Program-made: the position numbers and the translations under genes
Assembly: GCA_965215185.1 (NCBI GenBank)
Contig: OZ244034.1
Span: 341,863 to 405,862 of the forward strand
DNA length: 64,000 nt
Direction: 5' to 3'
DNA from: Acidimicrobiia bacterium
GTDB taxonomy: Bacteria; Actinomycetota; Acidimicrobiia; Spongiisociales; ZC4RG35
In this document: one piece after another, positions 20,067 to 64,000 of the stretch
Layout: each line of letters starts with the position of its first letter
Numbering within the stretch: position 1 is the first letter of the stretch
Notes under the pieces: model-generated
Seen by the model: the letters and a program-made list of their open reading frames with translations, nothing else
Told to the model about the DNA's origin: nothing
Database searches by the model: none

Positions 20067-20085
20067 GACAGACTTGAGTCAACTA

Positions 20086-24099: not shown

Positions 24100-24121
24100 A
24101 GACGCGCCCTTCACGACCTGA

Positions 24122-32171: not shown

Positions 32172-32216
32172 CGGCCAGGTTGAGTTTGGGTCAGACCTGC
32201 CCCGGCCTAGGGGCCC

Positions 32217-33365: not shown

Positions 33366-34274
33366 CTCCAGCTCCAGCAGGGTTTTTTGGTGTGGTGTGG
33401 CGGCAATCTCCCTTGCCGAGCGATTGGCCAGGGCTTGTGGAAGATCAGCCAGAAGATCCGGCTGCTGGCCGGCTGCCGGTGGGGAATAGCCACCCAACAG
33501 CCTTAACACGGTTCCAAGTTCCATGTACTCCCCATCGCCCAAAGCGATGTTTCTTTCCCCACACAGAGCTACCCCTCCTGCTCCTATGACGCTTAGTTCT
33601 CCTTTTCCGAAGTCGATCACCGCCACGGTGTGTTCATCCACTCCGATTATGCCCAAACCGGCGGGAAGCATGGCTTTCAGCAGTTCAAATCGCCGGCGCC
33701 CCATGTAGCACCGGCTCGTGTCGAAGCCCTGGCCCTCGGTGTTGTTCCAGTGTGGAATGAACACCGCCTCCAGGCCCAGATGGGAGGTGAGGTCCAATCC
33801 TTCCAGCCACCCCAGCCCGGAGCCCACTTTGTAGATCTCGTAGACGGGAAGAGTCTTCACTCCGGCCGTGAGGGCGGCGGCCGACGCCACTGTCACGGTG
33901 GCGCCAGTCGAGAGAAGATCTCGCAGCGCCGAGGCCAGCGGCGTCTCTTTCCACACTCCCAAGGCATAGGTAGGCGATCCCGGTCCGGCGAAGACGTAAC
34001 GGGCGCGGCGGACGGCGGCCAGCATCTCTTCGCAGGCGAGGGCGCCCGCTTCGGCAGAGCGGTAGGAGACCACCCCCGCCTCTATGGACAGGCTGGTGGT
34101 GAAAAAGGTAGCCAGCTTTTCGGAATTGAGGGTGGCGTTCTCCTGGAATCCGTAGGGGGTGTCGAGCACCAGCACTTGATGGGCCTTGGCCGCTTCGATC
34201 CCCAGCCGATGGGCAGCTAGCAGCCGATTGGAGGTCTCTCCAGATCCCATGAGAATCAGGCGTCCCGCTCTCAA
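33366..34274 (-). CDS. GATase1-like/peptidase S51 (cyanophycinase-like) family protein, 3' end disrupted by IS110 copy a
   Basis: N-terminal ~300 aa 'MRAGRLILMGSGETSNRLL...VLVLDTPYGFQ...' reads with no stop into the IS110 left end. The family call is weak. Confidence 0.3.
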
Positions 34275-48110: not shown

Positions 48111-48439
48111 GTAACACCGCTTTCGTTCAAACGAAGGCGCAGAGAATTAGTTTTGGTTTTTTCGCTGATATGGTGGTCTGCCTTTCGGGGGGAGTGATTT
48201 GGAGGGTGCGTTCGGGGGAATCGCAAATAATTACTTCCGGTTTTCCCCAATTGGGCGAGTGTTGGCTATTACTGTCCGTATATCGGAATGTAATTCCGCT
48301 AATTGGACATTTCGAGCAGAGTGCCCCGGTTGAGCGATATCAGTTGGAGTGTTCTGTTCAATGTTTACAGGGAACTAGAGAAGGTAGTAGCACCCGAGCG
48401 ACCGGCATGGTCGCATGGGTCTGGAAGGAGAAATAATCG
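48111..48439 (+). promoter_or_regulatory. unusually AT-rich ~330-bp leader/intergenic region upstream of the LivJ-like SBP gene
   Basis: Base composition is clearly lower in G+C than the surroundings (e.g. 'aattagttttggttttttcgctgatatgg', 'gtatatcggaatgtaattccgctaattggacatttcg'). An SD 'ggaggag' precedes the ATG at 48440. Confidence 0.4.
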
Positions 48440-49675: not shown

Positions 49676-49770
49676 TTAGATCCTTCCATAAATAGTGATG
49701 TATCGGTCTGCGCCCATCTATCTGGGCCAGACCGATACACCCTACGGATAACCAAGGAGGCTGGGCCAAA

Positions 49771-50169
49771 GTGAAGAGAGTTTACGTACCAGTCGAAGAG
49801 GCGCTGTTCAAGGCCATCGGGTCAAAGAGCCGTTGGAACGATGTGGTCCGAGTAGGTAATACCATGTGGGTCACCGGGCAACTGGGCTGGGATCGCAGCA
49901 CCGGAGTGCTGGCGGATACCTTGGAGGAGCAGACGGAACTGGCTCTCCAAAACCTCGAGAATGCCTTGAGCCGCGCAGGGGCCGCCTTGAGTGATGTGGT
50001 GCTGACCAGGATCTATCTGACCGATCATGACCACTACCACCGCTACGAGGTCATCTACAACCGCTATTTCCCCAGCCAGCAGCCCGCTCGGGTCTCGGTG
50101 GTGGTGGCGGAGCTGATCCACCACTCACTGATTGACATCGAAGCCGTAGCAGTGGTGGATGAGGAGTGA
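49771..50169 (+). CDS. RidA/YjgF-family reactive-intermediate (enamine/imine) deaminase
   Basis: 132 aa. 'VVRVGNTMWVTGQLGWD' and 'ARVSVVVAELIHHSLIDIEAVAVV' match the chorismate-mutase-like RidA fold. Confidence 0.8.
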   Translation: MKRVYVPVEEALFKAIGSKSRWNDVVRVGNTMWVTGQLGWDRSTGVLADTLEEQTELALQNLENALSRAGAALSDVVLTRIYLTDHDHYHRYEVIYNRYFPSQQPARVSVVVAELIHHSLIDIEAVAVVDEE

Positions 50170-50226: not shown

Positions 50227-50556
50227 ATGATCAAGACGGTGACTTTGCTGAACAGGAGGCCCGACCTGACCAGCGAGCAGTTTCATGAGCATTGGAAGAC
50301 TGTCCATGCTGCTCTGGTGCTGGCCATGCCCAGGGTGCGGCGTTATGTTCAATGTCGACCCTTGGAGGTTCCCGGTCGCGAGGCGCCCTGCGACGGTGTT
50401 GCCGAGGTGTGGTACGAAAGCGTCGAGGATTTTCTGGCCACGGCCGCTTCCGAAGAATACGTCCGGCTCTTAGCCGACGAGAAGAACTTCATGGGCGCCA
50501 AAACTCAGGACTCGGTGTTCGTGATAGTGGAAGAGGACGAGTTTCCTGTTGAATAG
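50227..50556 (+). CDS. EthD-domain / Dabb-like small alpha+beta-barrel protein
   Basis: 109 aa. 'FHEHWKTVHAALV' and the length fit the EthD family. Weak. Confidence 0.45.
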   Translation: MIKTVTLLNRRPDLTSEQFHEHWKTVHAALVLAMPRVRRYVQCRPLEVPGREAPCDGVAEVWYESVEDFLATAASEEYVRLLADEKNFMGAKTQDSVFVIVEEDEFPVE

Positions 50557-50571: not shown

Positions 50572-51381
50572 ATGACTGCTGCTCCTGACAACCAGCGTGG
50601 ATCTCTATCCAAGGGATTGCGCATCCTGGCCTCTTTCGACGAGAAGTCCCCTGCTCTGACCATCGCCGACATCTCGCGGCGCACCGAGATCAGCCGGGCC
50701 AGCGTCTACCGACTCACCGGCGTCCTGGAGGAATTGGGATACATACAGAGGGATGAACGATTCTTCCGTCCCTCCAGTAAGGTGCTGAAACTGGGAGTGG
50801 CGGCCGTCGAATCCCGGGAGTTCGTTGAGCACATTCGACCCTATCTGGATCAGATAAGCGCATTGCTTCCCCAGGCCACCGCCATCAACTATGGGGTGCT
50901 CGAAGGGACCGACATCATTTACCTAGCCCGTCGGCATCAAGACGACATCATCACCATCAACCTACGGGTGGGGAGTCGCCTTCCCGCTTATCTCAGTTCG
51001 CTGGGCAAAGCAATCCTTTCCGCCATGCCCCCCGCAGATGTGGAGGAGGTGGTGGCGCAAATGAGTTTCGAGCGACGGACCTCCACCACCATCACCAGCG
51101 CAGATCGCTATCGGGCGGAGGTGGAGCAGGCTCGCGTGAAAGGGATCGCGGTTAATGACCAGGAACTAACCATGGGGCTGCGCTCGGTTGCCGCTCCGGT
51201 CTTCCATGGATCGGAAGTGATAGGGGCGGTAGGAGTGGCCACGCTGGTCATAAGAGCGGATCTTGAGACTTTGGAGAACGATTACGGCCCGGTTCTGCAG
51301 TCCTTCACGAAAAAGATCAGCGAGGAGATATCCGCCATAAGGCTCGACAACCGGGTCCCAATCTACGCTAGCCATGAGTGA
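50572..51381 (+). CDS. IclR-family transcriptional regulator
   Basis: N-terminal wHTH 'LTIADISRRTEISRASVYRLTGVLEELGY' and a C-terminal IclR effector domain 'GIAVNDQELTMGLRSVAAPV'. Confidence 0.8.
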   Translation: MTAAPDNQRGSLSKGLRILASFDEKSPALTIADISRRTEISRASVYRLTGVLEELGYIQRDERFFRPSSKVLKLGVAAVESREFVEHIRPYLDQISALLPQATAINYGVLEGTDIIYLARRHQDDIITINLRVGSRLPAYLSSLGKAILSAMPPADVEEVVAQMSFERRTSTTITSADRYRAEVEQARVKGIAVNDQELTMGLRSVAAPVFHGSEVIGAVGVATLVIRADLETLENDYGPVLQSFTKKISEEISAIRLDNRVPIYASHE

Positions 51382-51429
51382 GACAGGTCCGTATAGGTCG
51401 GGTGTTTCAGGCAAGGGGAGGTCTGGACG

Positions 51430-52293
51430 ATGAACTGGGACATCATCGGCCAGCAGCTTTGGAACGGCCTTCTCAACGGCTCCATTTACGTGATTTTCGC
51501 GGCCGGATTGAGCTTGGTGTTCGGAGTGATGCGGGTGATCAACATGGCGCACGGGGAACTAACCATGCTCGGCGCCATGATCTTGTACACGGTGACCAAG
51601 CTGGTGGGTTTGGGGTACTTTGTCGGCGCGGGCGTGGTGGTGGTGATAATGGGCCTGGCCGGTTTCCTAGTCAACCGGGTGGCGGTCCGACCTTTCTTGG
51701 GTCAGTCGGAACTGGTGGTGATCCTCTCCACGGTCGCGCTCAGTTTCATGTTGTTGCATGGCAGTTTTGTGGTGTGGGGGTCGGAGCCGAAGGGTGTGGA
51801 CGAGCCGTTCAATGAAATCCTCAAGGTGGGGGGCGTCTACATCACTACCGCCGGTTTGCTTTTGGTGGGCGTGTGTTTCACTGCGGTGCTGGCTTTGTAC
51901 CTGATACTCACCCACACCAAGCTCGGGAAAATGACCCGCGCCACCGGCCAGAACCTGCTTGGGGCTCGCCTGATCGGCATCAATACAACGGCAATCTACG
52001 ATGCGACTTTGATCATTGCCTCCGGTTTGGCGGCGCTGGCCGGAGTGCTAATAGTCCTTGTGTCGACCGCGTCTCCCAACCTGGGCCAGCCCCTTCTTAT
52101 CACCGGTTTCGCGGTTGTAATTGTGGCCGGAATGGGCAATGTTGGGGGTGCGGTGGCGGTGGGACTGTTCCTGGGTGTCACCGAAGCATTATTCGGCCAG
52201 TTCATCTCCACTTACTATCGGCAGGGTTACCTGTACGTGGTGATGATCATTGTCCTGCTGCTGCGGCCGCAGGGTTTGTTCGGGAGAAGGTGA
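51430..52293 (+). CDS. branched-chain amino acid-type ABC permease (LivH-like)
   Basis: 287 aa with 8 TM helices and LivH-type topology. Confidence 0.85.
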   Translation: MNWDIIGQQLWNGLLNGSIYVIFAAGLSLVFGVMRVINMAHGELTMLGAMILYTVTKLVGLGYFVGAGVVVVIMGLAGFLVNRVAVRPFLGQSELVVILSTVALSFMLLHGSFVVWGSEPKGVDEPFNEILKVGGVYITTAGLLLVGVCFTAVLALYLILTHTKLGKMTRATGQNLLGARLIGINTTAIYDATLIIASGLAALAGVLIVLVSTASPNLGQPLLITGFAVVIVAGMGNVGGAVAVGLFLGVTEALFGQFISTYYRQGYLYVVMIIVLLLRPQGLFGRR

Positions 52294-52294
52294 G

Positions 52295-53317
52295 ATGCGT
52301 TTGAGACTGGGTCCGGGGTTCTGGATCGGGATTCCGACGCTGGTGATTGCGCTGTTGGTGCCGCTCACCCTCTTTACGAACCCCTACAACCGCGGGTTGC
52401 TGGTGTTGATTGTGATCTACGCCATAGCCGGTCTGAGCCTCGACTACATCATGGGGGAGATGGGGCAATTCTCGTTCGGACATGCCGCCTTCTGGGGTTT
52501 CGGTGCTTATGTTTCCGCCAAACTCGCCCTCGACCTGGGCATTTCACCATGGCTCGGTTTTGTGGCCGCCCCTTTGGCGGCCGGCTTGGTGGGTCTATTG
52601 ATCGGCTATGTGGCTTTGCGCAGGACCCGCGGGTTGGAGTTGGCGATCGTCACCCTCGGGTTCGGGGTGCTGGCGTGGACGGTGGCTTTGCGGTGGAGGT
52701 CGGTTACCGGCGGCCCGTCAGGACTGCGCCAGATTCCTCCGCCCAGCCTCTTTGGTTGGGAGATACGTTCGGAATTGGCCTACTTCTATTTCGCCCTCTT
52801 GTTGCTTCTGGGGGTGATCTTCATCTTGGGGAGGTTGCGGAAGTCGCGTTTCGGAAGAGGAGTGCGCAGCATTCACGAAAATGAGGATCTTGCCAGATCC
52901 ATCGGTGTTGCGGCCACCAAATACTACGTATTTGCCTTCGCATTTGCATGCGGGTTGGTGGGGTTTTCCGGAGCGTTGTACGCCCACCATTTCAGATTTG
53001 TCAACCCCAACCTTCTCGGTCTGCAGCCCATGTTCATCTTTTTGATAATTGTCTTGGTAGGCGGAACGGGGACCTTGTGGGGCCCGGTGTTCGGTGCGGC
53101 GATCTTTGTACTGGTGAGTGAGTGGTTGCGAGCTCTTCAGGAGTACCGGTTTTTGATTTTCGGGGTGGTCTTGCTGCTGGTGGTGCTATTCATGCCCAGC
53201 GGCGTGTACCCGGCGCTCCGGAACGCCCTGACGCGGCGTGGGGCGCGACACGGCCCTCAAGCTACCTCCGTATCTGCGGTTGAGGCCCCCGGGCCGGATG
53301 AGTCTGAGGTGAGATAG
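52295..53317 (+). CDS. branched-chain amino acid-type ABC permease (LivM-like)
   Basis: The ATG at 52295 lies 1 nt after the LivH stop; the upstream part of the ORF is an over-extension. TM-rich 340 aa. Confidence 0.8.
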   Translation: MRLRLGPGFWIGIPTLVIALLVPLTLFTNPYNRGLLVLIVIYAIAGLSLDYIMGEMGQFSFGHAAFWGFGAYVSAKLALDLGISPWLGFVAAPLAAGLVGLLIGYVALRRTRGLELAIVTLGFGVLAWTVALRWRSVTGGPSGLRQIPPPSLFGWEIRSELAYFYFALLLLLGVIFILGRLRKSRFGRGVRSIHENEDLARSIGVAATKYYVFAFAFACGLVGFSGALYAHHFRFVNPNLLGLQPMFIFLIIVLVGGTGTLWGPVFGAAIFVLVSEWLRALQEYRFLIFGVVLLLVVLFMPSGVYPALRNALTRRGARHGPQATSVSAVEAPGPDESEVR

Positions 53318-54084
53318 TGCCGATACTGCAAACCACGGGGCTCACCAAGCTGTTCGGTGGCCTGTCGGCGGTCGACGATTTGGATCTTCGTGTGGAGGAG
53401 GGCGAGATCATGGGTTTGATCGGTCCCAACGGCTCCGGGAAAACCACCGCTCTGAACCTGATAACCGGTTTCATCAAACCCACCCGCGGCGGGGTGACTT
53501 ATCAGGGAAACGACATAACCGGCGCTCAGCCTCAAGATCTCGCCCGCGTGGGATTGGTTCGTACTTTCCAGATAACCACGCTCTTTGAGAATCTCAGGGT
53601 TCGGGACAACGTGCTCCACGGCAGCCATCTTGCCAACCCGACATCCTTGGTGGGAGCTTTGACCCGTTCCCGCAAGTACCGGGAGCAGCAGGCCACCATG
53701 GAAGAACGAGTATGGGAATTGCTCGAATTCGTGGGTCTTCAGGGCCGCATCGACGCGATGGCCCGTGACCTCTCGGCGGGTGAGCACCGCTACCTGGAGA
53801 TTGCTATCGCCCTGGCGGCCAACCCCAAGATGCTGCTGCTCGACGAACCGGCGACCGGACTGAACCCGGAAGAGGCCGGCTTTTTGATGAGTCTGATCAG
53901 GACGTTGAGAGATCGGGGGGTGACGGTGCTGCTCATCGAGCACAATATGCGACTGATCATCAACATTTGCACCCGGATCACGGTGCTGAATTTCGGCGCC
54001 AAGATCGCCGAAGGCTCGCCTGAGGAGATCGTGGGCGATGAAGCCGTTGTGGCGGCCTATTTGGGGAAGAGGCGCGGTGCTTGA
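53317..54084 (+). CDS. ABC ATP-binding protein (LivG-like)
   Basis: Walker A 'GPNGSGKTT', signature 'LSAGEHRYLEIAIAL', Walker B 'LLLDEPATGL'. Confidence 0.85.
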   Translation: MPILQTTGLTKLFGGLSAVDDLDLRVEEGEIMGLIGPNGSGKTTALNLITGFIKPTRGGVTYQGNDITGAQPQDLARVGLVRTFQITTLFENLRVRDNVLHGSHLANPTSLVGALTRSRKYREQQATMEERVWELLEFVGLQGRIDAMARDLSAGEHRYLEIAIALAANPKMLLLDEPATGLNPEEAGFLMSLIRTLRDRGVTVLLIEHNMRLIINICTRITVLNFGAKIAEGSPEEIVGDEAVVAAYLGKRRGA

Positions 54085-54781
54085 GGTCAATTCCCTCAAT
54101 GTGGCCTACGGGCGGGTACAGGTGCTATTCGATGTCTCGATCAGCGTCGGAGAAGGCGAATTGGTGACCGTGATCGGGGCCAACGGAGCCGGCAAAACCA
54201 CCCTGCTTCTGACCATCTCTGGGGTGCTCAAGCCCATGGACGGAAGTATCTCATTTGCTGGTGAGGGAATCGACGACCGCCAACCGCATGAGATTTTTAG
54301 TATGGGGCTGGGTCATGTCCCACAGGGCAAAGAACTCTTCCCGGCCATGACCGTCCTGGATAACTTAGAGATGGGCGCCCACTTGGTGAAGGATCGGGTC
54401 GAGTACCAGGAGCGACTGGCTCGGGCTTTCGAGTTCTTTCCTCGTCTCTCCGAACGGGCCCGCCAGCGGGCCGGCACCCTGAGCGGTGGGGAGCAGCAGA
54501 TGCTGGCCATCGCCCGGGCGCTGATGGGCAAGCCCGATTTGCTGCTCTTGGACGAGCCTTCGGCGGGACTGGCGCCGATCATCGTTGATCACCTGGCCGA
54601 GATCATCCTTGACTTGAACGAACAAGGCCTGACGGTGCTCCTGGTTGAGCAGAACGCGTACTTGGCGCTGGAGATCGCCAAGAAGGCCTACGTCATGGAG
54701 TCGGGCCTGGTTGTGGAAAGCGGTGACACAGCAGCGGTGCTCGAAAGTGACCTGGTGCGGCGCGCCTACATGGGGATCTGA
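54038..54781 (+). CDS. ABC ATP-binding protein (LivF-like)
   Basis: Walker A 'GANGAGKTT', signature 'LSGGEQQMLAIARAL', Walker B 'LLLDEPSAGL'. The true start is probably ~54080, overlapping the LivG stop. Confidence 0.85.
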   Translation: MKPLWRPIWGRGAVLEVNSLNVAYGRVQVLFDVSISVGEGELVTVIGANGAGKTTLLLTISGVLKPMDGSISFAGEGIDDRQPHEIFSMGLGHVPQGKELFPAMTVLDNLEMGAHLVKDRVEYQERLARAFEFFPRLSERARQRAGTLSGGEQQMLAIARALMGKPDLLLLDEPSAGLAPIIVDHLAEIILDLNEQGLTVLLVEQNAYLALEIAKKAYVMESGLVVESGDTAAVLESDLVRRAYMGI

Positions 54782-54783
54782 CA

Positions 54784-56841
54784 ATGGGTCTGCGAATCGG
54801 GGTTGACATCGGGGGGACCTTTACCGATTGGGTGATGGTCGATCAACAGGGAAGAGTGGAGGTTATCAAAACACCTACCACCCCGGATGGGTTCAGTGGG
54901 GTGTTCAATGCCATGGACGAGGCCGAGGTGAATGGCCAAAAGTTCAATTTCTTTGCTCACGGAACCACGCTGGGTACCAACGCGCTTATCCAAAGGCGAC
55001 TCCCCCGGGTGGCCATGGTCACCACCAGGGGAGTCACCGCCGTGTTGACCCAGGCTGCCCGGGGCTCCAAGGAGGACATTTGGGACATTTATGACGAATC
55101 TCCCCGACCTTCGATCGTTAAGCCCCGCGATCGTCTGGAGGTCACCGAGAGGACGCTTAGTTCCGGGGAGATCCGCATTCTGTTGGACGAGAAAGAAGCA
55201 AGGAAAGTGGCGCGGGTCCTGCGTGGTCGGGGTATCCGGACCATCGCGATCTGCTTTCTCCACTCCTACACCAACGGTCGGAACGAGCAGAGAATGAAAG
55301 AGATCATCCTGGAGGAGTACCCGGAGGCGCTGGTTCGTACCTCCAATGAAACCATTCCCCGGATTCTCGAATACGAGCGTTTCACCACCACCATCCTCAA
55401 TGTGGCGCTCATCCCGGTGATGATCGATTACCTGCAAGCCCTGGAACAGGGCCTTAGAGCCCGGCATTATGAGGGTGATGTGCTGATTGTGCAGTCGGCA
55501 GGTGGGCTGATGGGAGTCGAGGCCACTGCCAACATCCCGGTGAGGACTGCCAACTCCGGCCCCTCGGCGGGGGCGATCGCCGCCCGGGAAATAGGCTCAC
55601 TGGCCGGCTTCGACAATGTCATCGGACTTGATATCGGGGGCACCAGCACTGATGTCTCGGTAACTCTGGACGGCCAGGTTCGGACCACCGGAGCCTGGGA
55701 GGTGGAGTGGGGTCATCCGATCATGTTCCCCGCAGTGGACATAATCACGGTGGGGGCCGGGGGAGGGTCGGTGGCGTGGTTCGATCCGGGCGGCAAGCTT
55801 CGATCCGGACCTCACAGCATGGGAGCGGTTCCCGGTCCTGCATGCTATAGCAAAGGAGGAGATCACCCCACCAACACCGATGCCCATGTGGTGCTGGGAA
55901 ACCTGAGACCGGGCGCCATGTTGGGCGGAGCGATGGAGATCTCAGCCGCCTTGGCGGGGAAGGTAATCAATGACAAGATCGGTCAGAGGCTCGGCGCTGA
56001 CGCAGTATCCGCCGCGGCGGCGGTGATAGCTGTGGCCGAAGCGAACATGGCCAACGCCATCAGGCTGGCGACCATGAGGCGGGGCCTCGACCCTCGTGAC
56101 TTCGCCATGGTGGCATTCGGTGGGGCCGGCCCCTTTCACGGAGCCAGGGTGGCGGCCGAGTTGCGGATTCCGACGGTGGTGGTGCCTCCCAGTCCGGGAC
56201 TCACTTCGGCCCTGGGGTGTCTGATGGCCGACATTCGTCACGACCTGGGGGCCAGCATGTTCTATGGGGATGCGGCTGCGGTCGACCTCGAGGAGATGAA
56301 TGCCCGGTTTGATGAATTCGATGCCTATGTGAGGGCTGCCCTGGACCGCGAGGGCATTCCCCACGATCGCCAGTTCGTGGAGCGGACCATCGACATGTGC
56401 TACGCAGGGCAGTGGAGGGTTTTCGCAATACCGGTCACCGGCATGATGACCACCGAACGCCTTTCTGAGAGCGTGGAACTCTTCAAGAAGCTGTACCTGC
56501 AGAGGTTCTCCTTCGATCTGGGTGCGCGGGAGGTGGAGATCCATGGGATCAATGTGACTGGAACGGGAATCTCCGATAAGTACCGTCCTCGGCGGGGGAG
56601 AGCCATGCCCACTGCCAGTCCTGTCTCCGACTCCCGTCCGGTGTACTGGAGAGAGGCAGGAGGGTGGGTGGATACACCGGTATGGTCTCGATCTTCTCTA
56701 CCGGCGGGTTTCCGGACAGTGGGTCCGGCAGTCGTGGAGCAAATGGATTCCACCACCCTGGCGCCACCCGGTGTGAGTCTCTACGTAGACGAGTATCTCA
56801 ATCTGGTCTTGGACATCACCGGGAGTGGGGGGACCTTGTGA
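54784..56841 (+). CDS. hyuA: hydantoinase A-type ATP-dependent subunit (HyuA family), second copy
   Basis: 'IGVDIGGTFTDWVMV', 'IGLDIGGTSTDVSV'. 685 aa. Its start lies 3 nt after the LivF stop. Confidence 0.85.
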   Translation: MGLRIGVDIGGTFTDWVMVDQQGRVEVIKTPTTPDGFSGVFNAMDEAEVNGQKFNFFAHGTTLGTNALIQRRLPRVAMVTTRGVTAVLTQAARGSKEDIWDIYDESPRPSIVKPRDRLEVTERTLSSGEIRILLDEKEARKVARVLRGRGIRTIAICFLHSYTNGRNEQRMKEIILEEYPEALVRTSNETIPRILEYERFTTTILNVALIPVMIDYLQALEQGLRARHYEGDVLIVQSAGGLMGVEATANIPVRTANSGPSAGAIAAREIGSLAGFDNVIGLDIGGTSTDVSVTLDGQVRTTGAWEVEWGHPIMFPAVDIITVGAGGGSVAWFDPGGKLRSGPHSMGAVPGPACYSKGGDHPTNTDAHVVLGNLRPGAMLGGAMEISAALAGKVINDKIGQRLGADAVSAAAAVIAVAEANMANAIRLATMRRGLDPRDFAMVAFGGAGPFHGARVAAELRIPTVVVPPSPGLTSALGCLMADIRHDLGASMFYGDAAAVDLEEMNARFDEFDAYVRAALDREGIPHDRQFVERTIDMCYAGQWRVFAIPVTGMMTTERLSESVELFKKLYLQRFSFDLGAREVEIHGINVTGTGISDKYRPRRGRAMPTASPVSDSRPVYWREAGGWVDTPVWSRSSLPAGFRTVGPAVVEQMDSTTLAPPGVSLYVDEYLNLVLDITGSGGTL

Positions 56842-58685
56842 ACCCGCAAGCGCCGAATCCGAACATCGTGCCGGGTGTGGACCCGGTGACCTTTTCCATA
56901 CTCTCCAGCGCATTCGTAAGTCTGGTGGACGAGATGGTGGGCGCGTTGCAGGATGCCTGCCTGTCATTCGTGATCTATGTGGGGGATGTCAGCGGGGGAC
57001 TGCTCAATGCCAGGGGCGAGCTGGTCGCCCAAGGGACACGCGATGTGGCGGTTCACGTGGGGGCGCTGCAACCGAGCACCAAGGCGGTGATCGAGGACTT
57101 CATCGAGGTGGAGGGCGGTATCGAAGAGGGTGACGTGTACGCCTTCAACGAGCCTTATCGGGGTGGAACCCATCTTCCGGATATGACCTTTATCAGTCCG
57201 ATCTTCTGGCAGGACGAACTGATCGCGTTCACGGCCACCAAGGGCCACTGGTCGGATGTTGGCGGCGCCACGCCCGGCTCCATGAATGCCCTGGCTGCGG
57301 ATATTTATGCTGAAGGCCTGGTCGTCCCACCACTCAAAGTGGTCTCCCGGGGTGTTATTCGCCACGATGTCCGCAACCTGATAATGGCCAACATCCGCAT
57401 ACCCATCAACGCCACCGGTGACCTCATTGCCCACATAGAAGCCGCCCGGGTGGGGGAGAGGCGCCTGCATGGTCTCGTAGAGAAATACGGGATCGACACC
57501 GTCCTGGCGTCCATGGAAGGAACCCTCGATCATTCCGAGCGGGAACTGGCCGCCGAGATCCTCCAATGCCCGGAAGGGACCTGGGAGACCGAGGACTTCA
57601 TCGACTACGATCCTCAGGCACCCGAGGATGGCCCGGTCCGCGTCTCATTGAAGATGACCATCGAACACGACCCGCCGCGGGTCATCTATGACATGAGAGG
57701 GTCGGGGCCGCCGGTTCAATCCGGTATGAACGGCACGCGCGGTTCCACCTTCGGCGCCTTGGTGGCCGGGACCCACTACATCTTTCCCAAGCCTCTCATG
57801 AATGCCGGATGGCTTCGCATCATCAAAGCGATCTTTCCCGAGACAAGCGTGGTTAACGCGGTCCGGCCCTACGCGGTCTGCGGGGAGGTGTCGGGGGCCT
57901 ACGAGAAGACCACTGCTTGCATCCAACGGGTGTGGGCCGAAGTCTTGCCCCGAAAGTCCTTTGCCGGCAACTTCAACCTCGAGTACGTGGTGGCAGGGGG
58001 CATAGACGATCGGCCCGGTCGAAACAACAACTACTTCGTCTACTACCACTGGCACACCGGTGGCTGGGGAGGAAAGTACGGCGCAGACGGAAGAGACTGC
58101 GGAGCGGCGATCTTCGGGCTGGGCATCCTGAACCAGTCGAGCGAGGTCATTGAGAGGATGTGGCCGGTCACCTTCGAACGCCTGGCGCCGGTCACCGACT
58201 CCATGGGGGCGGGGAAGTGGAGAGGAGGGGCCGGGCTGGAGTCAGTGCTTAGAGTCGAGAACGCCGGTGGAGTCCGCCTTTCGTACATAGCCGACCGGGG
58301 GGAAGATGGGCCCGGCGGTCCCCGGGGCCTCTTCGGAGGCAGAGACGGCATCCCGATCCGGGTGGTAAAGAACATCAACACGGATGAAGAGGAGAACCTC
58401 CCGATCTATTTTGCCGACGAATTCGTCGGGCAGCACGGAAACTTCTATCACGTCTCCTCGGGAGGCGGAGGATACGGTGATCCCCTCCAACGGGATCCGG
58501 AGGCAGTCTTGGAAGACGTAATGGACAGATATGTTTCGCTCGAGTCCGCCCGTGCCGACTATGGGGTGGTTATCGAGGTTCGAGACGCCGACCTTCTCGA
58601 CTACCGAATCGATATCGAAGCCACAAGAACTTTGCGGGCCAAGCGGCGCCGCGCCCGATCAGACACAGGAGAGAAAAAGCCATGA
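56838..58685 (+). CDS. hyuB: hydantoinase B-type subunit (HyuB family), second copy
   Basis: The GTG start overlaps the hyuA stop ('cttGTGAac'). 'VDPVTFSILSSAFVSLVDEMVGAL' is a HyuB N-terminus. ORF-track 56664 is an over-extension. Confidence 0.85.
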   Translation: MNPQAPNPNIVPGVDPVTFSILSSAFVSLVDEMVGALQDACLSFVIYVGDVSGGLLNARGELVAQGTRDVAVHVGALQPSTKAVIEDFIEVEGGIEEGDVYAFNEPYRGGTHLPDMTFISPIFWQDELIAFTATKGHWSDVGGATPGSMNALAADIYAEGLVVPPLKVVSRGVIRHDVRNLIMANIRIPINATGDLIAHIEAARVGERRLHGLVEKYGIDTVLASMEGTLDHSERELAAEILQCPEGTWETEDFIDYDPQAPEDGPVRVSLKMTIEHDPPRVIYDMRGSGPPVQSGMNGTRGSTFGALVAGTHYIFPKPLMNAGWLRIIKAIFPETSVVNAVRPYAVCGEVSGAYEKTTACIQRVWAEVLPRKSFAGNFNLEYVVAGGIDDRPGRNNNYFVYYHWHTGGWGGKYGADGRDCGAAIFGLGILNQSSEVIERMWPVTFERLAPVTDSMGAGKWRGGAGLESVLRVENAGGVRLSYIADRGEDGPGGPRGLFGGRDGIPIRVVKNINTDEEENLPIYFADEFVGQHGNFYHVSSGGGGYGDPLQRDPEAVLEDVMDRYVSLESARADYGVVIEVRDADLLDYRIDIEATRTLRAKRRRARSDTGEKKP

Positions 58686-60037
58686 ACGACATCCGAGCCC
58701 AATTTGTGGAGCGCTACCGGCAGCGCACCCCCCGATCCCGCCGACTATACGAGCAGGCAAAAGAACATCTCCCGGGTGGAGTTCCCGGTAACGCCGGATA
58801 CCGGCCGCCCCACCCGCTGTATGTGGACCGCGCCAGCGGACCCTTTCTCTGGGATATCGACGGTAACCGGTACATCGACTCTCTGATCGGCGGCGGCCCT
58901 CATATCCTGGGCCATTCTCCACCGGCGGTGATGAATGCGGTGGCGGAACAACTCTCGGCGGGTACCAGCACCATCGCCCCCCCGCCCACCGCCGTGGCTT
59001 TGGCCAGGCGGATCAAAAAGCACATGCCACACATGGAGATGGTGCGTTTCGTGCATACCGGCTCGGAGGCGGTCCACATGTCAATGCGGGTGGCCCGCGC
59101 TTTCACCGGGAGACCGAAGATCGGAAAATTCGAGGGCAACTTCCACGGCGGCTACGACAACCTGCTCGTCAGCGGAACGTCGTTCGGTGGACCCGAGGAG
59201 CGGCCGCTGTCTGTCCCGGAGGGGGCAGGAATCCCTCAGAGTGTTCTTGACGATACGGTGGTGTTGCCGTTCAACAACACCGACGCTACGGTGGCTCTCA
59301 TCGAGCGGCACGCCAGTGAACTGGCCGCGGTGATGGTCGAGGCGGTGGGCGGAACCTGGCTGGGAGGTATTGTGGCCGAACAGGGGTTTTTGGAGGCGCT
59401 TCGGGAGGTAACCGCCCGCCACGGGATCCTGCTGATCTTCGATGAGGTGATCACCGGCTTCCGAGTGGCCCTGGGCGGAAGCGCCGCCGTCACCGGAATT
59501 ACTCCCGATCTGACCGCCTTGGCCAAGACAATCGGAGGAGGGTTCCCGATGGGAGCGTTCGGTGGTCGACGCGATGTTATGGACCAGGTGGTCACTCCCA
59601 AACGGGATGCAAGCGATGACCGCGTCACCATTTTCCAGTCGGGGACTTTTCAGAGCAATCTGGTGTCCTTGACGGCAGGGCTGGCAATGCTCTCGGAACT
59701 GGAGAAACCGGGCGTTTATGAAAAGCTGAACGATCATGGTGATCAAGTGCGCCAGGGGATGGAAAAGATCGGCGCCAATTTGGGCCTCCCCATCCAGGCC
59801 ATCGGGCAGGGATCCATCTTTGGGGTTTATTTTGCCGAGGAACCGGTCCGCAATATCCGGGATGTGGTGCGAAGCGACCGAGAACTGGCCGGGATCTTTT
59901 ATCTGGGACTATTGGCCCATGGAGTGTTTATCACCCCCTATCACCTGGGATTCACCAACGCCGCGCAGACTCAGTCGGAGATTGATGGGATACTCGACAT
60001 CTGTCAAGCCGTGCTGGAAACCATCATGGAGGGCTGA
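58682..60037 (+). CDS. class-III (omega) PLP aminotransferase (GSA-aminomutase / omega-transaminase fold)
   Basis: 451 aa. 'GGGPHILGHSPPAV', 'LIFDEVITGFR' and 'LAKTIGGGFPMGAFGG' (PLP-lysine) are class-III motifs. There is a 4-bp overlap with the hyuB stop. Confidence 0.8.
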   Translation: MNDIRAQFVERYRQRTPRSRRLYEQAKEHLPGGVPGNAGYRPPHPLYVDRASGPFLWDIDGNRYIDSLIGGGPHILGHSPPAVMNAVAEQLSAGTSTIAPPPTAVALARRIKKHMPHMEMVRFVHTGSEAVHMSMRVARAFTGRPKIGKFEGNFHGGYDNLLVSGTSFGGPEERPLSVPEGAGIPQSVLDDTVVLPFNNTDATVALIERHASELAAVMVEAVGGTWLGGIVAEQGFLEALREVTARHGILLIFDEVITGFRVALGGSAAVTGITPDLTALAKTIGGGFPMGAFGGRRDVMDQVVTPKRDASDDRVTIFQSGTFQSNLVSLTAGLAMLSELEKPGVYEKLNDHGDQVRQGMEKIGANLGLPIQAIGQGSIFGVYFAEEPVRNIRDVVRSDRELAGIFYLGLLAHGVFITPYHLGFTNAAQTQSEIDGILDICQAVLETIMEG

Positions 60038-60079
60038 TTGTTTGACTGGCGCGCAGTTGGGTAGGAGACCGGAGTCGGT

Positions 60080-61294
60080 ATGACGGGAATGCTCTCGGGA
60101 GTGACGGTCCTGGAACTGGGCCAAGTGATCGCTGGCACCTATGGCGGCATGATCCTGGCCGATCTGGGCGCCGAGGTGATCAAGATCGAACCTCCCTGGG
60201 GCGACGCGGCCCGGAACCCGACGATTACTCCGGTGGGAGGGGAGAGCGCCATTCATTTGCAGATGAATCGAGGGAAAAAGAGCATGGTGCTCGACCTGAA
60301 GAGCGACGCGGGGCGGGAGATCTTCTATGGTCTGGTCGCCAAATCGGATGTGGTGATCGACAACTTCCGTCCCGGGGTTATGGCACGCCTGCGGATTGGC
60401 CACGAAAGTCTTCGTCGACACAACCCGCGGCTCATCACGGTTTCCATCACTGGGTTCGGCGCCACCGGACCTGCCCGAGACCGGCCGGCTTTCGATCTGG
60501 TGGTGCAGGCTTACAGTGGTCTTCTCAGCATGACCGGACCGGCCGACGGACCGCCCGCTCGAGTGGGGATTCCCATCGCTGACATCTCCGGTGGAATTTT
60601 TGCCTGTCTGGCGGTGCTGGGAGCTCTGGTAGGTCTGCAGCTGCATGGAGAGCCCAAACACGTTGATGTCTCGATGCTCGACGCGCTGGTCTCCATGTTG
60701 TCTTATGACGCCTTCGATCATTTGAACACCGGTGCCCGAATCGAGCGGCGGGGAACCGCCCACGCTCACATCGTCCCGTGGCAGGCCTTGGCGGTCAAGG
60801 ATGGCTACGTGGTGGTGGCCGTCCGCGGTGAGAAGTTCTGGGGAAACCTCTGTGACGCGATCGGTCGTCCCGACCTCAAGGAAGACCCGCGCACCAGGGA
60901 CAACGCCGCTCGTTTGGAGAATCGTTCCTACGTGGAGAAGATCCTGTCCGAAGCATTTGCTAAGCGGACCAAGGACGAGTGGACCGCAATGATGGAGGAG
61001 TACGATCTTCCTGTCGCCCCGGTCAACGACATAGCGGAGGTATTCACCGACCCGCAGGTCCGGGCCAGGGGGATGGTGCAGCAGTACGGGCATCCTTTTT
61101 TGGGGGATCTCTCATACCCGCCCAGCCCCATGAAGATAAGTGAGTGGAGCTATCCCAACCAGCCCGCTCCCATCCTGGGTCAGCACACCGCCGAGGTGCT
61201 CCTGGAAAAGTTGGCCTACTCGACCGAGGCAATTGAGGAGTTGGTGGCTCGCCGAATCGTGCAGACCGGACCAAGTCAAGGCGAGGGGTTATAG
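60080..61294 (+). CDS. CoA-transferase family III (CaiB/BaiF/Frc-like)
   Basis: 404 aa. 'VLELGQVIAGTYGGMILADLGAEVIKIE' N-terminus and the 'DNFRPG' motif, typical of family III CoA transferases. Confidence 0.8.
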   Translation: MTGMLSGVTVLELGQVIAGTYGGMILADLGAEVIKIEPPWGDAARNPTITPVGGESAIHLQMNRGKKSMVLDLKSDAGREIFYGLVAKSDVVIDNFRPGVMARLRIGHESLRRHNPRLITVSITGFGATGPARDRPAFDLVVQAYSGLLSMTGPADGPPARVGIPIADISGGIFACLAVLGALVGLQLHGEPKHVDVSMLDALVSMLSYDAFDHLNTGARIERRGTAHAHIVPWQALAVKDGYVVVAVRGEKFWGNLCDAIGRPDLKEDPRTRDNAARLENRSYVEKILSEAFAKRTKDEWTAMMEEYDLPVAPVNDIAEVFTDPQVRARGMVQQYGHPFLGDLSYPPSPMKISEWSYPNQPAPILGQHTAEVLLEKLAYSTEAIEELVARRIVQTGPSQGEGL

Positions 61295-61370
61295 GAGTTA
61301 TGGACACTGTGTCTGATATACGGACACTTCCCGAGGGATTAACGATCGGCTCGGCAAGGCGTAGGGTGGA

Positions 61371-62420
61371 ATGATGAGCAACGGCACAGGAATCATCCCT
61401 TCAGTCGTCTCCCATCCCGCCGATCCGGGTTCCACCGACCGTCCGGAAACAGGGGAGGCAGTGTTGCACGGTTGGAGCGATGCCCAACTTCACGACATCT
61501 TCCGATCCATGTACACGATCCGACGGTTTGAAGTAACCATGGAGCGGGCCCACCTCGCCGGTGAACTGTATGGTCCCTTTCACTCCTCAATGGGGCAGGA
61601 GGCCATTTCGGTGGGAGTTTGCGCGGCTCTCCGTAGTGATGATGTGGTCACTTCGACTCACCGGGGGCATGGACACGCCATCGCCAAGGGCGCGCAACTC
61701 GGCCCGGTCTGTGCGGAGCTGTGGGGGAGGGCCACCGGTTACTGTGGAGGCAAAGGCGGATCGATGCACATCGTGAGCACCGAGCACGGGTTTATCGGCC
61801 AGAGTCCGATCATCGGGGGAAGCAGCCTGCTGGCCACCGGCGCCGCTCTTTCTTTTGATCTGACCGGGGACTCGCGGGTGGCCGTGGCGTTCTTGGGAGA
61901 TGGCGCGGTGGGACAAGGCGTCTTCCATGAGACGCTCAATCTGGCGGCCATTTGGCATCTTCCGGTGGTATTTGTGGTGGAGAACAACGGATACGCCCAT
62001 TCATTCCGGGCGGATCAGATGCAGTTGAACCCCGACGTAGCCTCCCGGGCGGAAGGCTACGGGATAGCGGGGGTGGTCGTCGACGGTATTGATGTTTTTG
62101 CGGTTTACGCGGCTACCAGGAATGCGGTGGCTCGGGCGCGGGCGGGCAATGGTCCCACGCTGATAGAAGCCAAGTGCTACCGGTGGCGGGGACACAACCT
62201 AGGGGACGCCGAGCATCTGTACCGGGAGCGAGGAGAAGTGGAGGAGGCGCGAAGGAACGATCCGCTGGAAAGATTCCGTCGCGCCGCATCCGAGCGGGTG
62301 CCGTCCGCTATCTGGGCCGAAATCGAGGCGGCGGTGGACAAAGAGATAGATGAGGCGGCCAGATTCGCCGCCGAATCCCCTTTTCCCGATCCGCAAACCG
62401 CGTTGGAGGGAAGTCTCTGA
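61371..62420 (+). CDS. TPP-dependent 2-oxoacid/acetoin dehydrogenase E1 alpha subunit
   Basis: TPP-binding 'GDGAVGQGVFHETLNLAAIWHLPVVFVVENNGYA' motif (GDG...NN). Confidence 0.8.
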   Translation: MMSNGTGIIPSVVSHPADPGSTDRPETGEAVLHGWSDAQLHDIFRSMYTIRRFEVTMERAHLAGELYGPFHSSMGQEAISVGVCAALRSDDVVTSTHRGHGHAIAKGAQLGPVCAELWGRATGYCGGKGGSMHIVSTEHGFIGQSPIIGGSSLLATGAALSFDLTGDSRVAVAFLGDGAVGQGVFHETLNLAAIWHLPVVFVVENNGYAHSFRADQMQLNPDVASRAEGYGIAGVVVDGIDVFAVYAATRNAVARARAGNGPTLIEAKCYRWRGHNLGDAEHLYRERGEVEEARRNDPLERFRRAASERVPSAIWAEIEAAVDKEIDEAARFAAESPFPDPQTALEGSL

Positions 62421-63412
62421 TGCGGGAGATCATGTTCATCGAAGCAGTGCGGGAGGCACAGGCCGAAGCCTTGGTGGCTGATGACCGGGTGTTCGTGATG
62501 GGACAGGAGATCGGTTCCTACGGAGGGGTATTTCGGGCTACGCAGGATTTCGTCCGCCGGTTCGGTGATAAGCGGGTGCGGGACATGCCGATCGCCGAGC
62601 AGTCGATGCTGGGCGCGGGGGTGGGAGCGGCGGTGATGGGGATGCGTCCCATCGTTGAGGTCATGTTCATGGACTTTGTCGCCTGCGGGATGGACGCCAT
62701 CGTCAACCACGCCGCCAAGATGCGTTACATGTCCGGTGACCAGTTGCGGGTGCCGATGGTCATCCGCACCCAGGGGGGCTCCGGCACCCATCACGGGTCA
62801 CAACACTCGCAGACTCTGGAGAGTTGGTTCCTGCACGTTCCTGGTTTGGCGGTGGTGGTGCCCTCCACTCCCCAGGATGTGAAGGGCCTTTTCAAGAGCT
62901 CGATAGATCTTGACCATCCGGTACTGTTTGTCGAACACCGAGCTCTGTACCGGACCAAGGGAATGGTCACGGATCCGGTGGCGCCGATCCCGCTGGGAAG
63001 AGGGGTGATCCGACGCAATGGGCAGGACGTCACGGTGGCCACCATCGGAAAGTCTGTCCGGCAGGCGCTGACCGCGGCCCGGCAAATGGAAGAGGAAGGA
63101 ATCTCGGTGGAGGTTATCGACCTTCGGACCCTGGTGCCCATGGATGTCGAGATCGTGTTGGAGTCGTTGTCCCGCACCCATCGGCTGGTAGTAGCCCACG
63201 AGGCTGTGGAGAGGGGAGGATGGGCCGGTGAGTTGGTCAGCCGGGTGGTCGCGGAGGGATTCGACGAACTCGACGCGCCTCCCCTGCGGGCGGGCAGCCG
63301 GGCGACGCCCATCCCGTTCGCCCGGGAGTTGGAGGCAGCCATGATATGCGATGAGAGACTGATCGCAAAGCGCATACGACAAAGCCTGGGAATGATGGAG
63401 TACTCAACATGA
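62420..63412 (+). CDS. 2-oxoacid/acetoin dehydrogenase E1 beta subunit (transketolase-like)
   Basis: 'VFVMGQEIGSYGGVFRAT', 'EQSMLGAGVGAAVMGMRPIVEVMF'. Its start overlaps the E1 alpha stop. Confidence 0.8.
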   Translation: MREIMFIEAVREAQAEALVADDRVFVMGQEIGSYGGVFRATQDFVRRFGDKRVRDMPIAEQSMLGAGVGAAVMGMRPIVEVMFMDFVACGMDAIVNHAAKMRYMSGDQLRVPMVIRTQGGSGTHHGSQHSQTLESWFLHVPGLAVVVPSTPQDVKGLFKSSIDLDHPVLFVEHRALYRTKGMVTDPVAPIPLGRGVIRRNGQDVTVATIGKSVRQALTAARQMEEEGISVEVIDLRTLVPMDVEIVLESLSRTHRLVVAHEAVERGGWAGELVSRVVAEGFDELDAPPLRAGSRATPIPFARELEAAMICDERLIAKRIRQSLGMMEYST

Positions 63413-64000
63413 GCAGGGCGGCGGTCGATATCGGGGGGACCTTCACCGACGTGGTCACGGTGAACGAGTCCACTGGTGAACTGATTCAGGCCAAAGCCCT
63501 GACCACCTACCCCGATCCCACGCCAGGCTTTCTGACTGCGCTTGCCAAAGCCACCGATCGAGCCGACCTCGATACGGTCGGGTACGGGACCACCCTGGCC
63601 ACCAACGCGGTATTGACCAAATCAGGCGCCAAGACGGCGTTGTTGACCACCGAGGGGTTCCGTGACGTCCTGGAGATCCGGCGCACCCACCGGTCCACCC
63701 TATTCGACATCTATGAAAAGATCCCCCCTCCCATCGTCCCTCGACCATTGCGGTTCGAGATCCCCGAAAGAACTGCTGCGGATGGCAGTGAGGTGACAGC
63801 GCTCGACGAGCGGGCGGTGCGGGCTGCGGCGGTGCGTATGCGCCGGGCCGGGGTGGAGTCGATCGCGGTCTCCTACCTCTTTTCCTTCATGAACCCCGAT
63901 CACGAGCTTCGCACCCGGGAGATACTGAGAGAAGAGTTGCCGGATCTGCGCGATGACATAACCATCTCATCGGAGGCGCTTCCCCTCCACCGCGAATACG
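63409..64000 (+). CDS. hyuA: hydantoinase A-type subunit, third copy (5' partial; continues beyond window)
   Basis: 'MSRAAVDIGGTFTDVVTVNESTGELIQAKALTTYPD...GTTLATNAVLTK...TTEGFRDVLEIRR'. It is open to the window edge and overlaps the E1 beta stop by 4 bp. Confidence 0.75.
   Translation, partial: MSRAAVDIGGTFTDVVTVNESTGELIQAKALTTYPDPTPGFLTALAKATDRADLDTVGYGTTLATNAVLTKSGAKTALLTTEGFRDVLEIRRTHRSTLFDIYEKIPPPIVPRPLRFEIPERTAADGSEVTALDERAVRAAAVRMRRAGVESIAVSYLFSFMNPDHELRTREILREELPDLRDDITISSEALPLHREY

Follow-up and report, generated by a model that had tools for sequence, protein, structure and literature searches.

Which compound is served by a run of genes that joins an amino-acid-type importer, hydantoinase-like enzymes, aminotransferases and a thiamine pyrophosphate (TPP)-dependent dehydrogenase beside a regulator of the IclR family? 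The question is raised by a locus in contig OZ244034.1 (GenBank assembly GCA_965215185.1) of an Acidimicrobiia bacterium, of which a stretch of 64,000 nucleotides, here called the window (positions 341,863 to 405,862 of the forward strand, renumbered from 1), was analysed. An earlier note, made from the letters alone, had described in the last 13.4 kb of the window an operon-like cluster suggestive of lactam catabolism. The answer favoured here, with a probability of roughly 0.55 for the explanation as a whole, is that the locus is a composite operon of sponge- and coral-associated Acidimicrobiia, built of two paralogous modules of the type "lactamase plus transaminase", which would import one or more stable cyclic amides, open the ring at the expense of ATP, deaminate the product and cut it to acyl-coenzyme A (acyl-CoA), under the control of its own IclR protein acting through predicted GTCCG-N5-CGGAC dyads before the gene of the importer's substrate-binding protein (SBP) and before E1alpha.

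Extent and modular structure of the operon

The gene order proposed earlier, in which IclR is followed by LivHMGF, HyuA (here HyuA1), HyuB (HyuB1), a class-III aminotransferase (AT3a), a CoA-transferase, the TPP-enzyme subunits E1alpha and E1beta and a further HyuA (HyuA2), all on the plus strand, is confirmed by the listing of open reading frames (ORFs), Pfam and NCBIfam, with stops and starts that mostly overlap or nearly touch. The bounds given for the cluster, positions 50572 to 64000, enclose a real part of it but are too narrow at both ends: the unit starts not with the IclR gene but at 48.27 kb, where a conserved candidate operator of two dyads precedes the SBP gene, and in close relatives it runs about 10 kb past the window.

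About 22 species-level genomes of Acidimicrobiia share the order from the SBP gene to HyuB2, the partner of HyuA2, with 72–95% amino-acid identity, and such synteny of the whole order means that the arrangement is not due to chance. The closest genomes are metagenome-assembled genomes (MAGs) of Acidimicrobiia, two of them named Candidatus Spongiisocius, and several presumably come from sponges or a coral, judged by isolate names and general knowledge. For the part beyond the window, homologues of a relative's full-length HyuA2 were found and the contigs encoding them were read. In a close relative, locus L125 on a contig of 615 kb, E1beta is followed by HyuA2 (676 aa, to which the fragment in the window is 90% identical), HyuB2 (589 aa) and a second aminotransferase, AT3b (458 aa), then by two short-chain dehydrogenases/reductases (SDRs), an E2 component and an M24-family hydrolase, after which the genes lie on the opposite strand; the rest of the last HyuA and its partner, which the earlier note had proposed to look for beyond the window, are thus seen in this relative. 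Judged from such relatives, the operon would span about 24 kb, of which the window holds the first two-thirds.

Outside this clade a smaller unit recurs, module 2, which comprises E1alpha, E1beta, HyuA2, HyuB2, AT3b, two SDRs and E2 together with an IclR gene. In loci L127–L129 its members are 55–59% (E1alpha), 58–71% (E1beta), 54–65% (HyuA2), 62–76% (HyuB2), 59–64% (AT3b) and 45–52% (SDRs) identical to those of the operon; E2 is 46% identical in L128, and the IclR proteins of L127 and L128 are 46–48% identical to that of the window. All three are uncultured genomes in which E1alpha precedes the HyuA2-type genes: L127 and L128 combine the module with a divergent Opp/Dpp-type transporter, and L129 with a transporter of the LivJ type, the SBP of which shares 50% identity with the window's, E2 being replaced there by a free lipoyl protein and an alpha/beta hydrolase. 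The cultured Conexibacter sp. CPCC 206217 (L130) carries the module in rearranged form, at 42–59% identity (E1alpha 44%, E1beta 42%), with E1alpha placed after HyuB and an M24 gene after E2. Because module 2 recurs as a unit of its own with orthologous genes, E1alpha/beta belongs with HyuA2B2 and not with HyuA1B1, and the earlier view of the TPP enzyme as the downstream step of the first HyuAB pair has to be given up.

The modules are conserved across phyla. The core of module 1, from the SBP through LivHMGF and HyuA1B1 to AT3a, recurs in a Dehalococcoidia MAG (L019) at 40–60% identity and without the CoA-transferase, in line with the earlier claim of a co-regulated catabolic operon in which an ATP-binding cassette (ABC) importer and a class-III aminotransferase accompany a HyuAB-type hydrolase that opens cyclic amides with ATP. 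HyuA1 and HyuA2 are just 36–37% identical, and AT3a and AT3b 42%. In L019, module 1 lies divergent from the gene of a 792-aa transketolase- or pyruvate dehydrogenase (PDH) E1-like TPP enzyme of the homodimer type (1792–4170, minus strand), with two class-IV aminotransferases downstream; this is a second, independent pairing of a HyuAB-aminotransferase set with a TPP enzyme.

Within the window, all members lie on the plus strand. The LivJ-type periplasmic SBP (48440–49675; Peripla_BP_6, Pfam 184 bits) is followed by a RidA enamine/imine deaminase (49771–50169; Ribonuc_L-PSP, 103.6 bits) and an EthD-domain protein (50227–50556; 70 bits), both syntenic in the orthologues and the latter missing from the earlier list of members. 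IclR (50572–51381) precedes the LivH- and LivM-type permeases (51430–52293 and 52295–53317; both BPD_transp_2), the start of LivM having been re-placed at the ATG 2 bases past the LivH stop, and the LivG- and LivF-type ATPases (53317–54084, ABC_tran and BCA_ABC_TP_C; 54077–54781, ABC_tran), the latter now starting at GTG 54077 with 234 aa as in relatives. HyuA1 (54784–56841), HyuB1 (56838–58685), AT3a (58682–60037) and the family-III (CaiB/BaiF) CoA-transferase (60080–61294) complete module 1, whereupon E1alpha (61371–62420) opens module 2, followed by E1beta (62420–63412) and by the N-terminal 197 codons of HyuA2 (63409–64000), cut at the window end. Six junctions overlap (LivM/LivG, LivG/LivF, HyuA1/HyuB1, HyuB1/AT3a, E1alpha/E1beta and E1beta/HyuA2), and there are three true gaps, of 48 bp after IclR, 42 bp after AT3a and 76 bp after the CoA-transferase; GC content is uniform throughout, at 0.58–0.62. 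Three genes at 45.8–48.1 kb, which encode MsrA, an aminotransferase of class I/II and a thioesterase of the 4HBT family, were rejected as members: their place is upstream of the candidate operator, and six lineages lack them at that position.

Some lineages depart from this plan. Locus L126, of the same lineage as L013, lacks AT3b, HyuB2 being followed directly by the SDRs (junction at L126 13797), and there AT3a may serve both modules. One orthologous MAG (L022, 8973–10339) has an internal deletion of about residues 254–466 in hyuB1, and in L021 (10001–12026) a frameshift near residue 285 divides hyuA1 in two; such changes may be signs that module 1 is decaying in some lineages, or else errors of assembly. 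In L125, the closest long contig, the operon is directly followed (19170–21700) by the toxin-antitoxin genes PIN/MazE, by an acyl-CoA lyase resembling CitE/RipC on the minus strand, which would pair well with the family-III CoA-transferase, and by a phosphotriesterase-family protein; L126 does not share this neighbourhood. A search for the exact sequence of HyuA1 gave no match, and a metagenome scan seeded with the HyuA2 fragment, which was dominated by the generic DIGGTFTD pattern, returned only relatives of at most 50% identity and no extension. The best plasmid-borne relatives of HyuA2 (about 42%) stand in unrelated contexts in Sagittula, Haladaptatus and pRi1724.

Operator-like dyads and the IclR regulator

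The regulator carries the domains HTH_IclR and IclR_C and resembles the PcaR/PcaU/PobR subgroup, scoring 217 bits with TIGR02431, which is under the cut-off of 284.75. When the 329-bp gap before the SBP gene is aligned across 20 orthologous loci, the sole conserved block besides the ribosome-binding site spans positions 48273–48309, 130–165 bp upstream of the SBP start. This candidate IclR operator consists of the tandem dyads GTCCGTATATCGGAA and TTCCGCTAATTGGAC, 20 bp apart, and its cons85 consensus across the 20 loci reads GTCCG.ATA.CGGAT.....TTCCG.TAA..GGGCA. A second copy of the dyad, TGTGTCTGATATACGGACA (GTCCGTATATCAGAC on the reverse strand), with one mismatch to the palindrome, lies at 61309–61327, about 46 bp before E1alpha; it is kept as TGTCYG-N5-CGGACA in the window and in L001, L002, L006, L007 and L021, lineages with a gap of about 70 bp, is degenerate in L008 and L013, and is absent where the gap measures 11 bp. 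An operator had earlier been suggested in the gaps near 50.5 kb or at 51.38–51.43 kb, but neither holds a conserved one, the conserved dyads being those at 48.27–48.31 and 61.31 kb; an operator-like half-site in the gap between IclR and LivH was dropped, as it is not conserved.

Relatives carry analogous, lineage-specific dyads, such as GTTCG-N5-CGAAC in L127–L129. In Conexibacter (L130, JAUTDO010000007.1), four copies of TATCGCT-N3-GCGATA are spread over three intergenic promoter regions (727–861, 3268–3583 and 9941–10000), and this palindrome is likely the IclR operator that marks the scattered genes of the module as one regulon. Both features of an IclR regulon, namely a protein with HTH_IclR and IclR_C and palindromic dyads in promoters, are thus present at the operon, with binding itself a prediction.

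The gene of the SBP is trailed by a hairpin read from the sequence at about 49700–49740 (plus strand), GTATCGGTCTG...CAGACCGATAC, with a perfect 11-bp stem, which may stabilise the mRNA or attenuate transcription. Hairpins placed after an SBP gene are a typical means of boosting the mRNA of the binding protein over that of the rest of the operon.

Hydrolases, aminotransferases and accessory enzymes

HyuA1 contains Hydant_A_N, Hydantoinase_A and Hydant_A_C (141, 278 and 48 bits, above the Pfam gathering scores), domains that mark it as a member of the hydantoinase/oxoprolinase superfamily, and it would bind ATP as one subunit of a cyclic-amide hydrolase driven by it; HyuB1 (Hydantoinase_B, 446 bits) would be the metal-dependent hydrolytic subunit, and the second pair belongs to the same superfamily. 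The ATP motifs DIGGTFTD, DIGGT and GxxPGP are intact in HyuA1 and HyuA2. In HyuB1 the four residues Asp-His-Asp-His align with D41, H99, D102 and H124 of CapB, a metal site that mutagenesis has shown to be essential in caprolactamase (PMC8453981).

The affinities of both pairs were ranked by bit scores against PDB chains and NCBIfam models, which covered the fused hydantoinase, caprolactamase and the acetone and acetophenone carboxylases. HyuA1 matches best a fused 1288-aa protein deposited as N-methylhydantoinase (PDB 7HK5/9H03; 436 bits), then caprolactamase (312) and acetone carboxylase (191); the same order holds for HyuB1 (228, 214 and 82 bits) and for HyuA2 (431, 406 and 263 bits). The caprolactamase chain in question, in PDB 6YRA, is the one labelled "5-oxoprolinase". 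Against the caprolactamase equivalogs NF050156 (CapA) and NF050157 (CapB), pair 1 scores 448.5/258.9 bits and pair 2 537.1/329.6 bits, far under the cut-off of 1000. Clustering with acetone carboxylase, which the earlier note had named as one outcome that would speak against its proposal, was not seen in the bit scores, nor was clustering with acetophenone carboxylase: scores with carboxylase subunits are 191–263 bits (Acx) and 280–328 bits (Apc) as against 312–537 bits for hydrolases. The HyuB subunits measure 589–615 aa and are in this respect CapB-like, whereas carboxylase subunits have 684–776 aa, and no gene for a small gamma or epsilon carboxylase subunit occurs in the cluster of the window or in its L125-type continuation. 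Taken together, these comparisons identify both pairs as hydrolase-type enzymes of uncharacterised clades, predicted to be neither carboxylases nor caprolactamase equivalogs.

Compared with the caprolactamase of Pseudomonas jessenii (PDB 6YRA; PMC8453981), the architecture of two subunits, the ATP motifs and the Asp-His-Asp-His site are the same; HyuB1, in contrast, has methionine in place of the catalytic Tyr136 of CapB. The fused N-methylhydantoinase, which is the best solved-structure match of HyuA1, HyuB1 and HyuA2, shares this methionine with HyuB1, yet it is a single polypeptide where the operon encodes separate subunits.

The window encodes a third pair, in the order HyuB3-HyuA3 (ORFs 21955–24099 and 24122–26239; tblastn matches 22372–24126 and 24143–26221, with the true start of HyuB3 nearer 22.36 kb). 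Between HyuA3 and HyuA2 the identity is 43%, and HyuA3 also has the ATP motifs. The pair is divergent from an Opp/Dpp-type ABC transporter (16026–21813, minus strand), beside which, on the minus strand, lie an amidase-signature enzyme (14343–15923) and a phosphotriesterase-family protein (13145–14128). Across this region (13145–26239) the GC content falls to 0.50–0.57, and transposases follow at 26440–26964, 29901–30905 and 31137–34274; it may have been acquired as an island that serves a different cyclic amide or a lactone.

The gene next to HyuB1 had been taken for an omega-transaminase. Although AT3a conforms to class III and fold type I (Aminotran_3, 194 bits; the equivalents of Lys273, which forms the Schiff base with pyridoxal phosphate, and of Asp245, the aspartate at N1 of the cofactor, are kept), it scores 393.5 bits with the HemL subfamily model (cut-off 398) and only 115–135 bits with the models for gamma-aminobutyrate (GABA) and omega-transaminases. 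The HemL equivalog itself, TIGR00713, is not reached (370 bits against a cut-off of 527). Both AT3a and AT3b are classed as resembling glutamate-1-semialdehyde aminomutase (GSAM), rather than as GabT- or omega-type. AT3a scores 300 bits with GSAM and 295 bits with the Sphaerobacter omega-transaminase 6K8H, whose substrates are beta- and gamma-amino acids (PMC10589169). Fold, subgroup and the Lys273/Asp245 pair are shared with the whole GSAM-like set, which includes 6K8H, the beta-phenylalanine aminotransferases and D-phenylglycine aminotransferase, and the nearest characterised transaminases of the AT3a subgroup use either D-phenylglycine or beta- or gamma-amino acids in which the carbon that bears the amine is substituted (PMC10589169).

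GSAM itself differs in several respects, beginning with its place in the haem pathway as opposed to a catabolic operon. Its Glu406 is thought to exclude alpha-keto acids, and typical class-III transaminases are said to have arginine at that position. In AT3a, AT3b and four relatives the residue is histidine; the position of GSAM Arg32 is occupied by a shifted arginine in AT3a and by lysine in AT3b, and the region of the gating loop contains a 7-residue insertion.

E1alpha (E1_dh, 256 bits), with an intact GDG...NN motif for TPP, and E1beta (Transket_pyr and Transketolase_C) resemble the heterotetramer-type E1 of acetoin dehydrogenase (AcoABC) or PDH-type complexes. The E2 of the relatives, which in L125 lies in the part of the operon beyond the window, likewise has lipoyl, E3-binding and catalytic domains with the motifs ETDKA, containing the lipoyl lysine, and DHRVFDG (DHRxxDG in the family). 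As in the aco and but operons, SDR genes lie adjacent, and the nearest annotated relatives of E1alpha (43–48%) belong to acetoin-dehydrogenase-like sets with SDRs. In contrast to those complexes, no E1/E2 score reaches the cut-off of a PDH equivalog (a subfamily model is all that E1beta passes), the cluster contains no E3 gene, the complex is placed between a CoA-transferase and a HyuAB pair, and in some relatives a free lipoyl protein and an alpha/beta hydrolase take the place of E2.

The CoA-transferase is a full-length member of family III (CoA_transf_3, 421 bits over residues 5–370) whose best matches are dicarboxylate enzymes (succinate-glutarate, mesaconate and hydroxymethylglutarate), with no equivalog reached (best 295 bits against a cut-off of 750). 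The M24 hydrolase, found at 17869–19140 in L125, at 16535–17806 and 19567–20805 in L126 and at 17004–18278 in L130, keeps four of the five metal ligands (D-C-H-E-E, with a conserved cysteine for the second aspartate); DddP is its best profile match (102 bits), creatinase models giving 24–33 bits. Conservation of this subfamily across domains is unusually high.

Finally, the SBP of the importer has no close relative among solved structures (at most 59 bits). Upstream of the operon, a 709-aa protein (43664–45793, plus strand) combines OpuAC, an SBP_bac_3/glutamate-receptor ligand-binding domain and a K+-channel-like pore (Ion_trans_2, Lig_chan), and resembles a ligand-gated channel of the GluR0 kind to which a betaine-type sensor has been added; it adjoins a BCCT transporter (41709–43481, minus strand) and another OpuAC protein (40783–41712, minus strand).

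Substrate class, competing explanations and significance

From these families we infer the following order of reactions, with ring opening rather than carboxylation as the HyuAB step. In module 1 (48.27–61.29 kb), the LivJ/LivHMGF importer would take up a polar cyclic amide, and HyuA1B1 would open it with ATP, HyuA phosphorylating the lactim and the metal site of HyuB hydrolysing it, by analogy with caprolactamase. AT3a would then turn the freed amine into a carbonyl, the CoA-transferase would activate a carboxylate of the product, and RidA would clear reactive enamine or imine by-products. In module 2 (which starts at 61.31 kb and ends some 10 kb past the window), HyuA2B2 would open a second or related cyclic amide, AT3b would deaminate the product and the two SDRs would adjust adjacent hydroxyl and keto groups, whereupon the acetoin- or pyruvate-dehydrogenase-like E1alpha-beta/E2, with the E3 of the cell, would oxidatively cleave a 2-oxo acid or an alpha-hydroxy- or diketone to acyl-CoA.

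Two features bear on the substrate. No Aldedh-family gene occurs in seven contexts, namely the window cluster and the six annotated relatives L125–L130, and a TPP enzyme stands beside each HyuAB-aminotransferase pair; together they favour opened rings in which the carbon that bears the amine is substituted or in the alpha position, which would yield a keto acid, acyloin or diketone suited to TPP/lipoyl cleavage, over terminal omega-amines that give semialdehydes. The favoured substrates are thus rings that resemble 5-oxoproline, 6-oxopipecolate or alkyl or hydroxy lactams, or that are N-substituted or peptidic; unsubstituted pyrrolidone, valerolactam and caprolactam are less likely than these.

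A number of points weigh against this explanation. Neither HyuAB clade has a characterised member, and identity to structurally characterised enzymes of the family is about 35–40% as read by eye from printed alignments. Identity of the aminotransferases to GSAM, as computed, is likewise low, at 35–39% (39% between AT3a and Synechococcus GSAM), and the histidine at the Glu406 position makes the amino acceptor, and even transaminase as opposed to aminomutase chemistry, uncertain. An aldehyde dehydrogenase elsewhere in the genome could serve simple omega-lactams. Homologues of the M24 hydrolase (64–67%) stand alone in many haloarchaea, in unrelated contexts, so that this gene does not identify the substrate and is perhaps not pathway-specific. 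As for regulation, the blocks at 48273–48309 and 61309–61327 are the sole matches with at most one mismatch in the 64 kb, as against none in 100 shuffles, but the pattern was derived from the same sites on which it was then counted, and scans for consensus sigma-70 promoters and terminators gave no more hits than shuffled sequence.

Of the other explanations, the earlier note had proposed simple lactams: HyuAB would open pyrrolidone, valerolactam or caprolactam to GABA, 5-aminovalerate or 6-aminohexanoate, the aminotransferase would give a semialdehyde, and CoA-transferase and E1 would process the acid. HyuAB followed by a class-III aminotransferase fits the logic of the caprolactam and valerolactam pathways (PMC8453981), in which ring opening gives an amino acid and then a carbonyl, and the top NCBIfam models are CapA/CapB for the hydrolases and succinate-glutarate for the CoA-transferase. 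This reading is unlikely, since the shortfall from the CapA/CapB cut-offs, the methionine for Tyr136 and an aminotransferase of another subgroup all separate the enzymes from caprolactamase, the semialdehydes would be poorly served without a dehydrogenase, such as that for 6-oxohexanoate, in any of the seven contexts, and two HyuAB pairs, a CoA-transferase, E1alpha-beta/E2 and the SDRs go beyond the caprolactam pathway, the latter two having no role on succinate, glutarate or adipate.

According to a second alternative, HyuAB opens diketopiperazines or opine-like N-substituted pyroglutamates, which the M24 protein or an alpha/beta-hydrolase peptidase splits and which transaminase and an E1/E2 like that of branched-chain 2-oxo acid dehydrogenase degrade. 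The relatives of module 2 use Opp/Dpp-type peptide/opine transporters, and the module is accompanied by a gene for an M24 Xaa-Pro-peptidase-like or a Peptidase_S15/S33-like hydrolase. Moreover, a HyuAB pair about 42% identical at HyuA2 lies beside hut genes in the opine-catabolic region of pRi1724, where a pair likewise adjoins ABC importers of its own, within a catabolic island that serves a specific substrate; the HyuAB-type enzymes of opine regions of Ti and Ri plasmids presumably act as opine-lactam hydrolases. The pRi1724 set, however, has no E1/E2 and no GSAM-like aminotransferase, and belongs to proteobacterial hosts. We know of no HyuAB enzyme that opens diketopiperazines, and no paper linking diketopiperazines to oxoprolinases was found; the alpha/beta hydrolase could simply be an acyltransferase of the AcoC type that works with the lipoyl protein, M24 proteins are widespread, and this account gives the two SDRs no task. 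As a whole this account is improbable, and so, somewhat further, is the idea that module 2, with or without its Cys-variant M24 protein, is an undescribed pathway in which an ATP-dependent lactamase opens a host-derived peptidic cyclic amide (e.g., a proline-containing diketopiperazine or an N-substituted pyroglutamate) ahead of transamination and a lipoyl/TPP cleavage complex.

Quite improbable, too, is a ketone hub in which HyuAB would carboxylate ketones, derived from sec-amines and sec-alcohols through the transaminases and SDRs, to beta-keto acids for activation by the CoA-transferase. The scheme is coherent as chemistry. Such enzymes belong to the same superfamily, and caprolactamase itself is bicarbonate-dependent (PMC8453981); the accessory enzymes all converge on carbonyl chemistry, and the beta-keto acids made by GSAM-like beta-transaminases are unstable and break down to methyl ketones. 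Against it stand the carboxylase-subunit scores, clearly under those for hydrolases, the short HyuB subunits, the lack of gamma and epsilon subunits, and dedicated importers of the amino-acid/peptide type that ketones do not need.

Weakest of all, creatinine degradation via N-methylhydantoin, with HyuAB as N-methylhydantoinase and the M24 protein as creatinase, is very improbable despite the JGI name "N-methylhydantoinase A" of homologues, the name of the best PDB match, the operon-terminal M24 protein with its weak Creatinase_N match and the way in which metagenomic work on sponges usually interprets hyuAB (PMC6742649), since no creatinine/cytosine deaminase, N-carbamoylsarcosine amidase or sarcosine oxidase or dehydrogenase is present at 45.8–64 kb or in the downstream 10 kb of the relatives, two transaminases would find no primary amine in N-carbamoylsarcosine and sarcosine, on which E1/E2, SDRs and CoA-transferase would have no function either, and the M24 protein matches creatinase so poorly and lacks one ligand.

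HyuAB-type amidohydrolases are very common, and to our knowledge few of their substrates have been established, namely 5-oxoproline, N-methylhydantoin, caprolactam, valerolactam and N-methylpyrrolidone. In the literature found, there is no description of this gene combination, of hydantoinases in sponge Acidimicrobiia, or of relevant work on Spongiisocius or the 9H03 structure. The families involved are all known and the logic extends the caprolactam-type scheme, whereas the combination and its substrate are new to that literature. The cluster defines two uncharacterised HyuAB clades, each tightly coupled to a GSAM-like aminotransferase and one also to E1/E2. ATP-driven lactamases combined with transaminases of the beta/gamma type are of interest to biocatalysis, for the opening of stable lactams. 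As module 2 is conserved from sponge Acidimicrobiia to a cultured Conexibacter, a testable entry is available, with a culturable proxy, a predicted operator and defined enzymes, and a new cyclic-amide catabolic route is a possible outcome. Caution is needed before every hyuAB in a sponge or coral metagenome is read as creatinine degradation (PMC6742649): if the peptidic reading of module 2 were true, some of the sponge hyuAB genes counted under that heading would mark a different nutrient link between host and symbiont.

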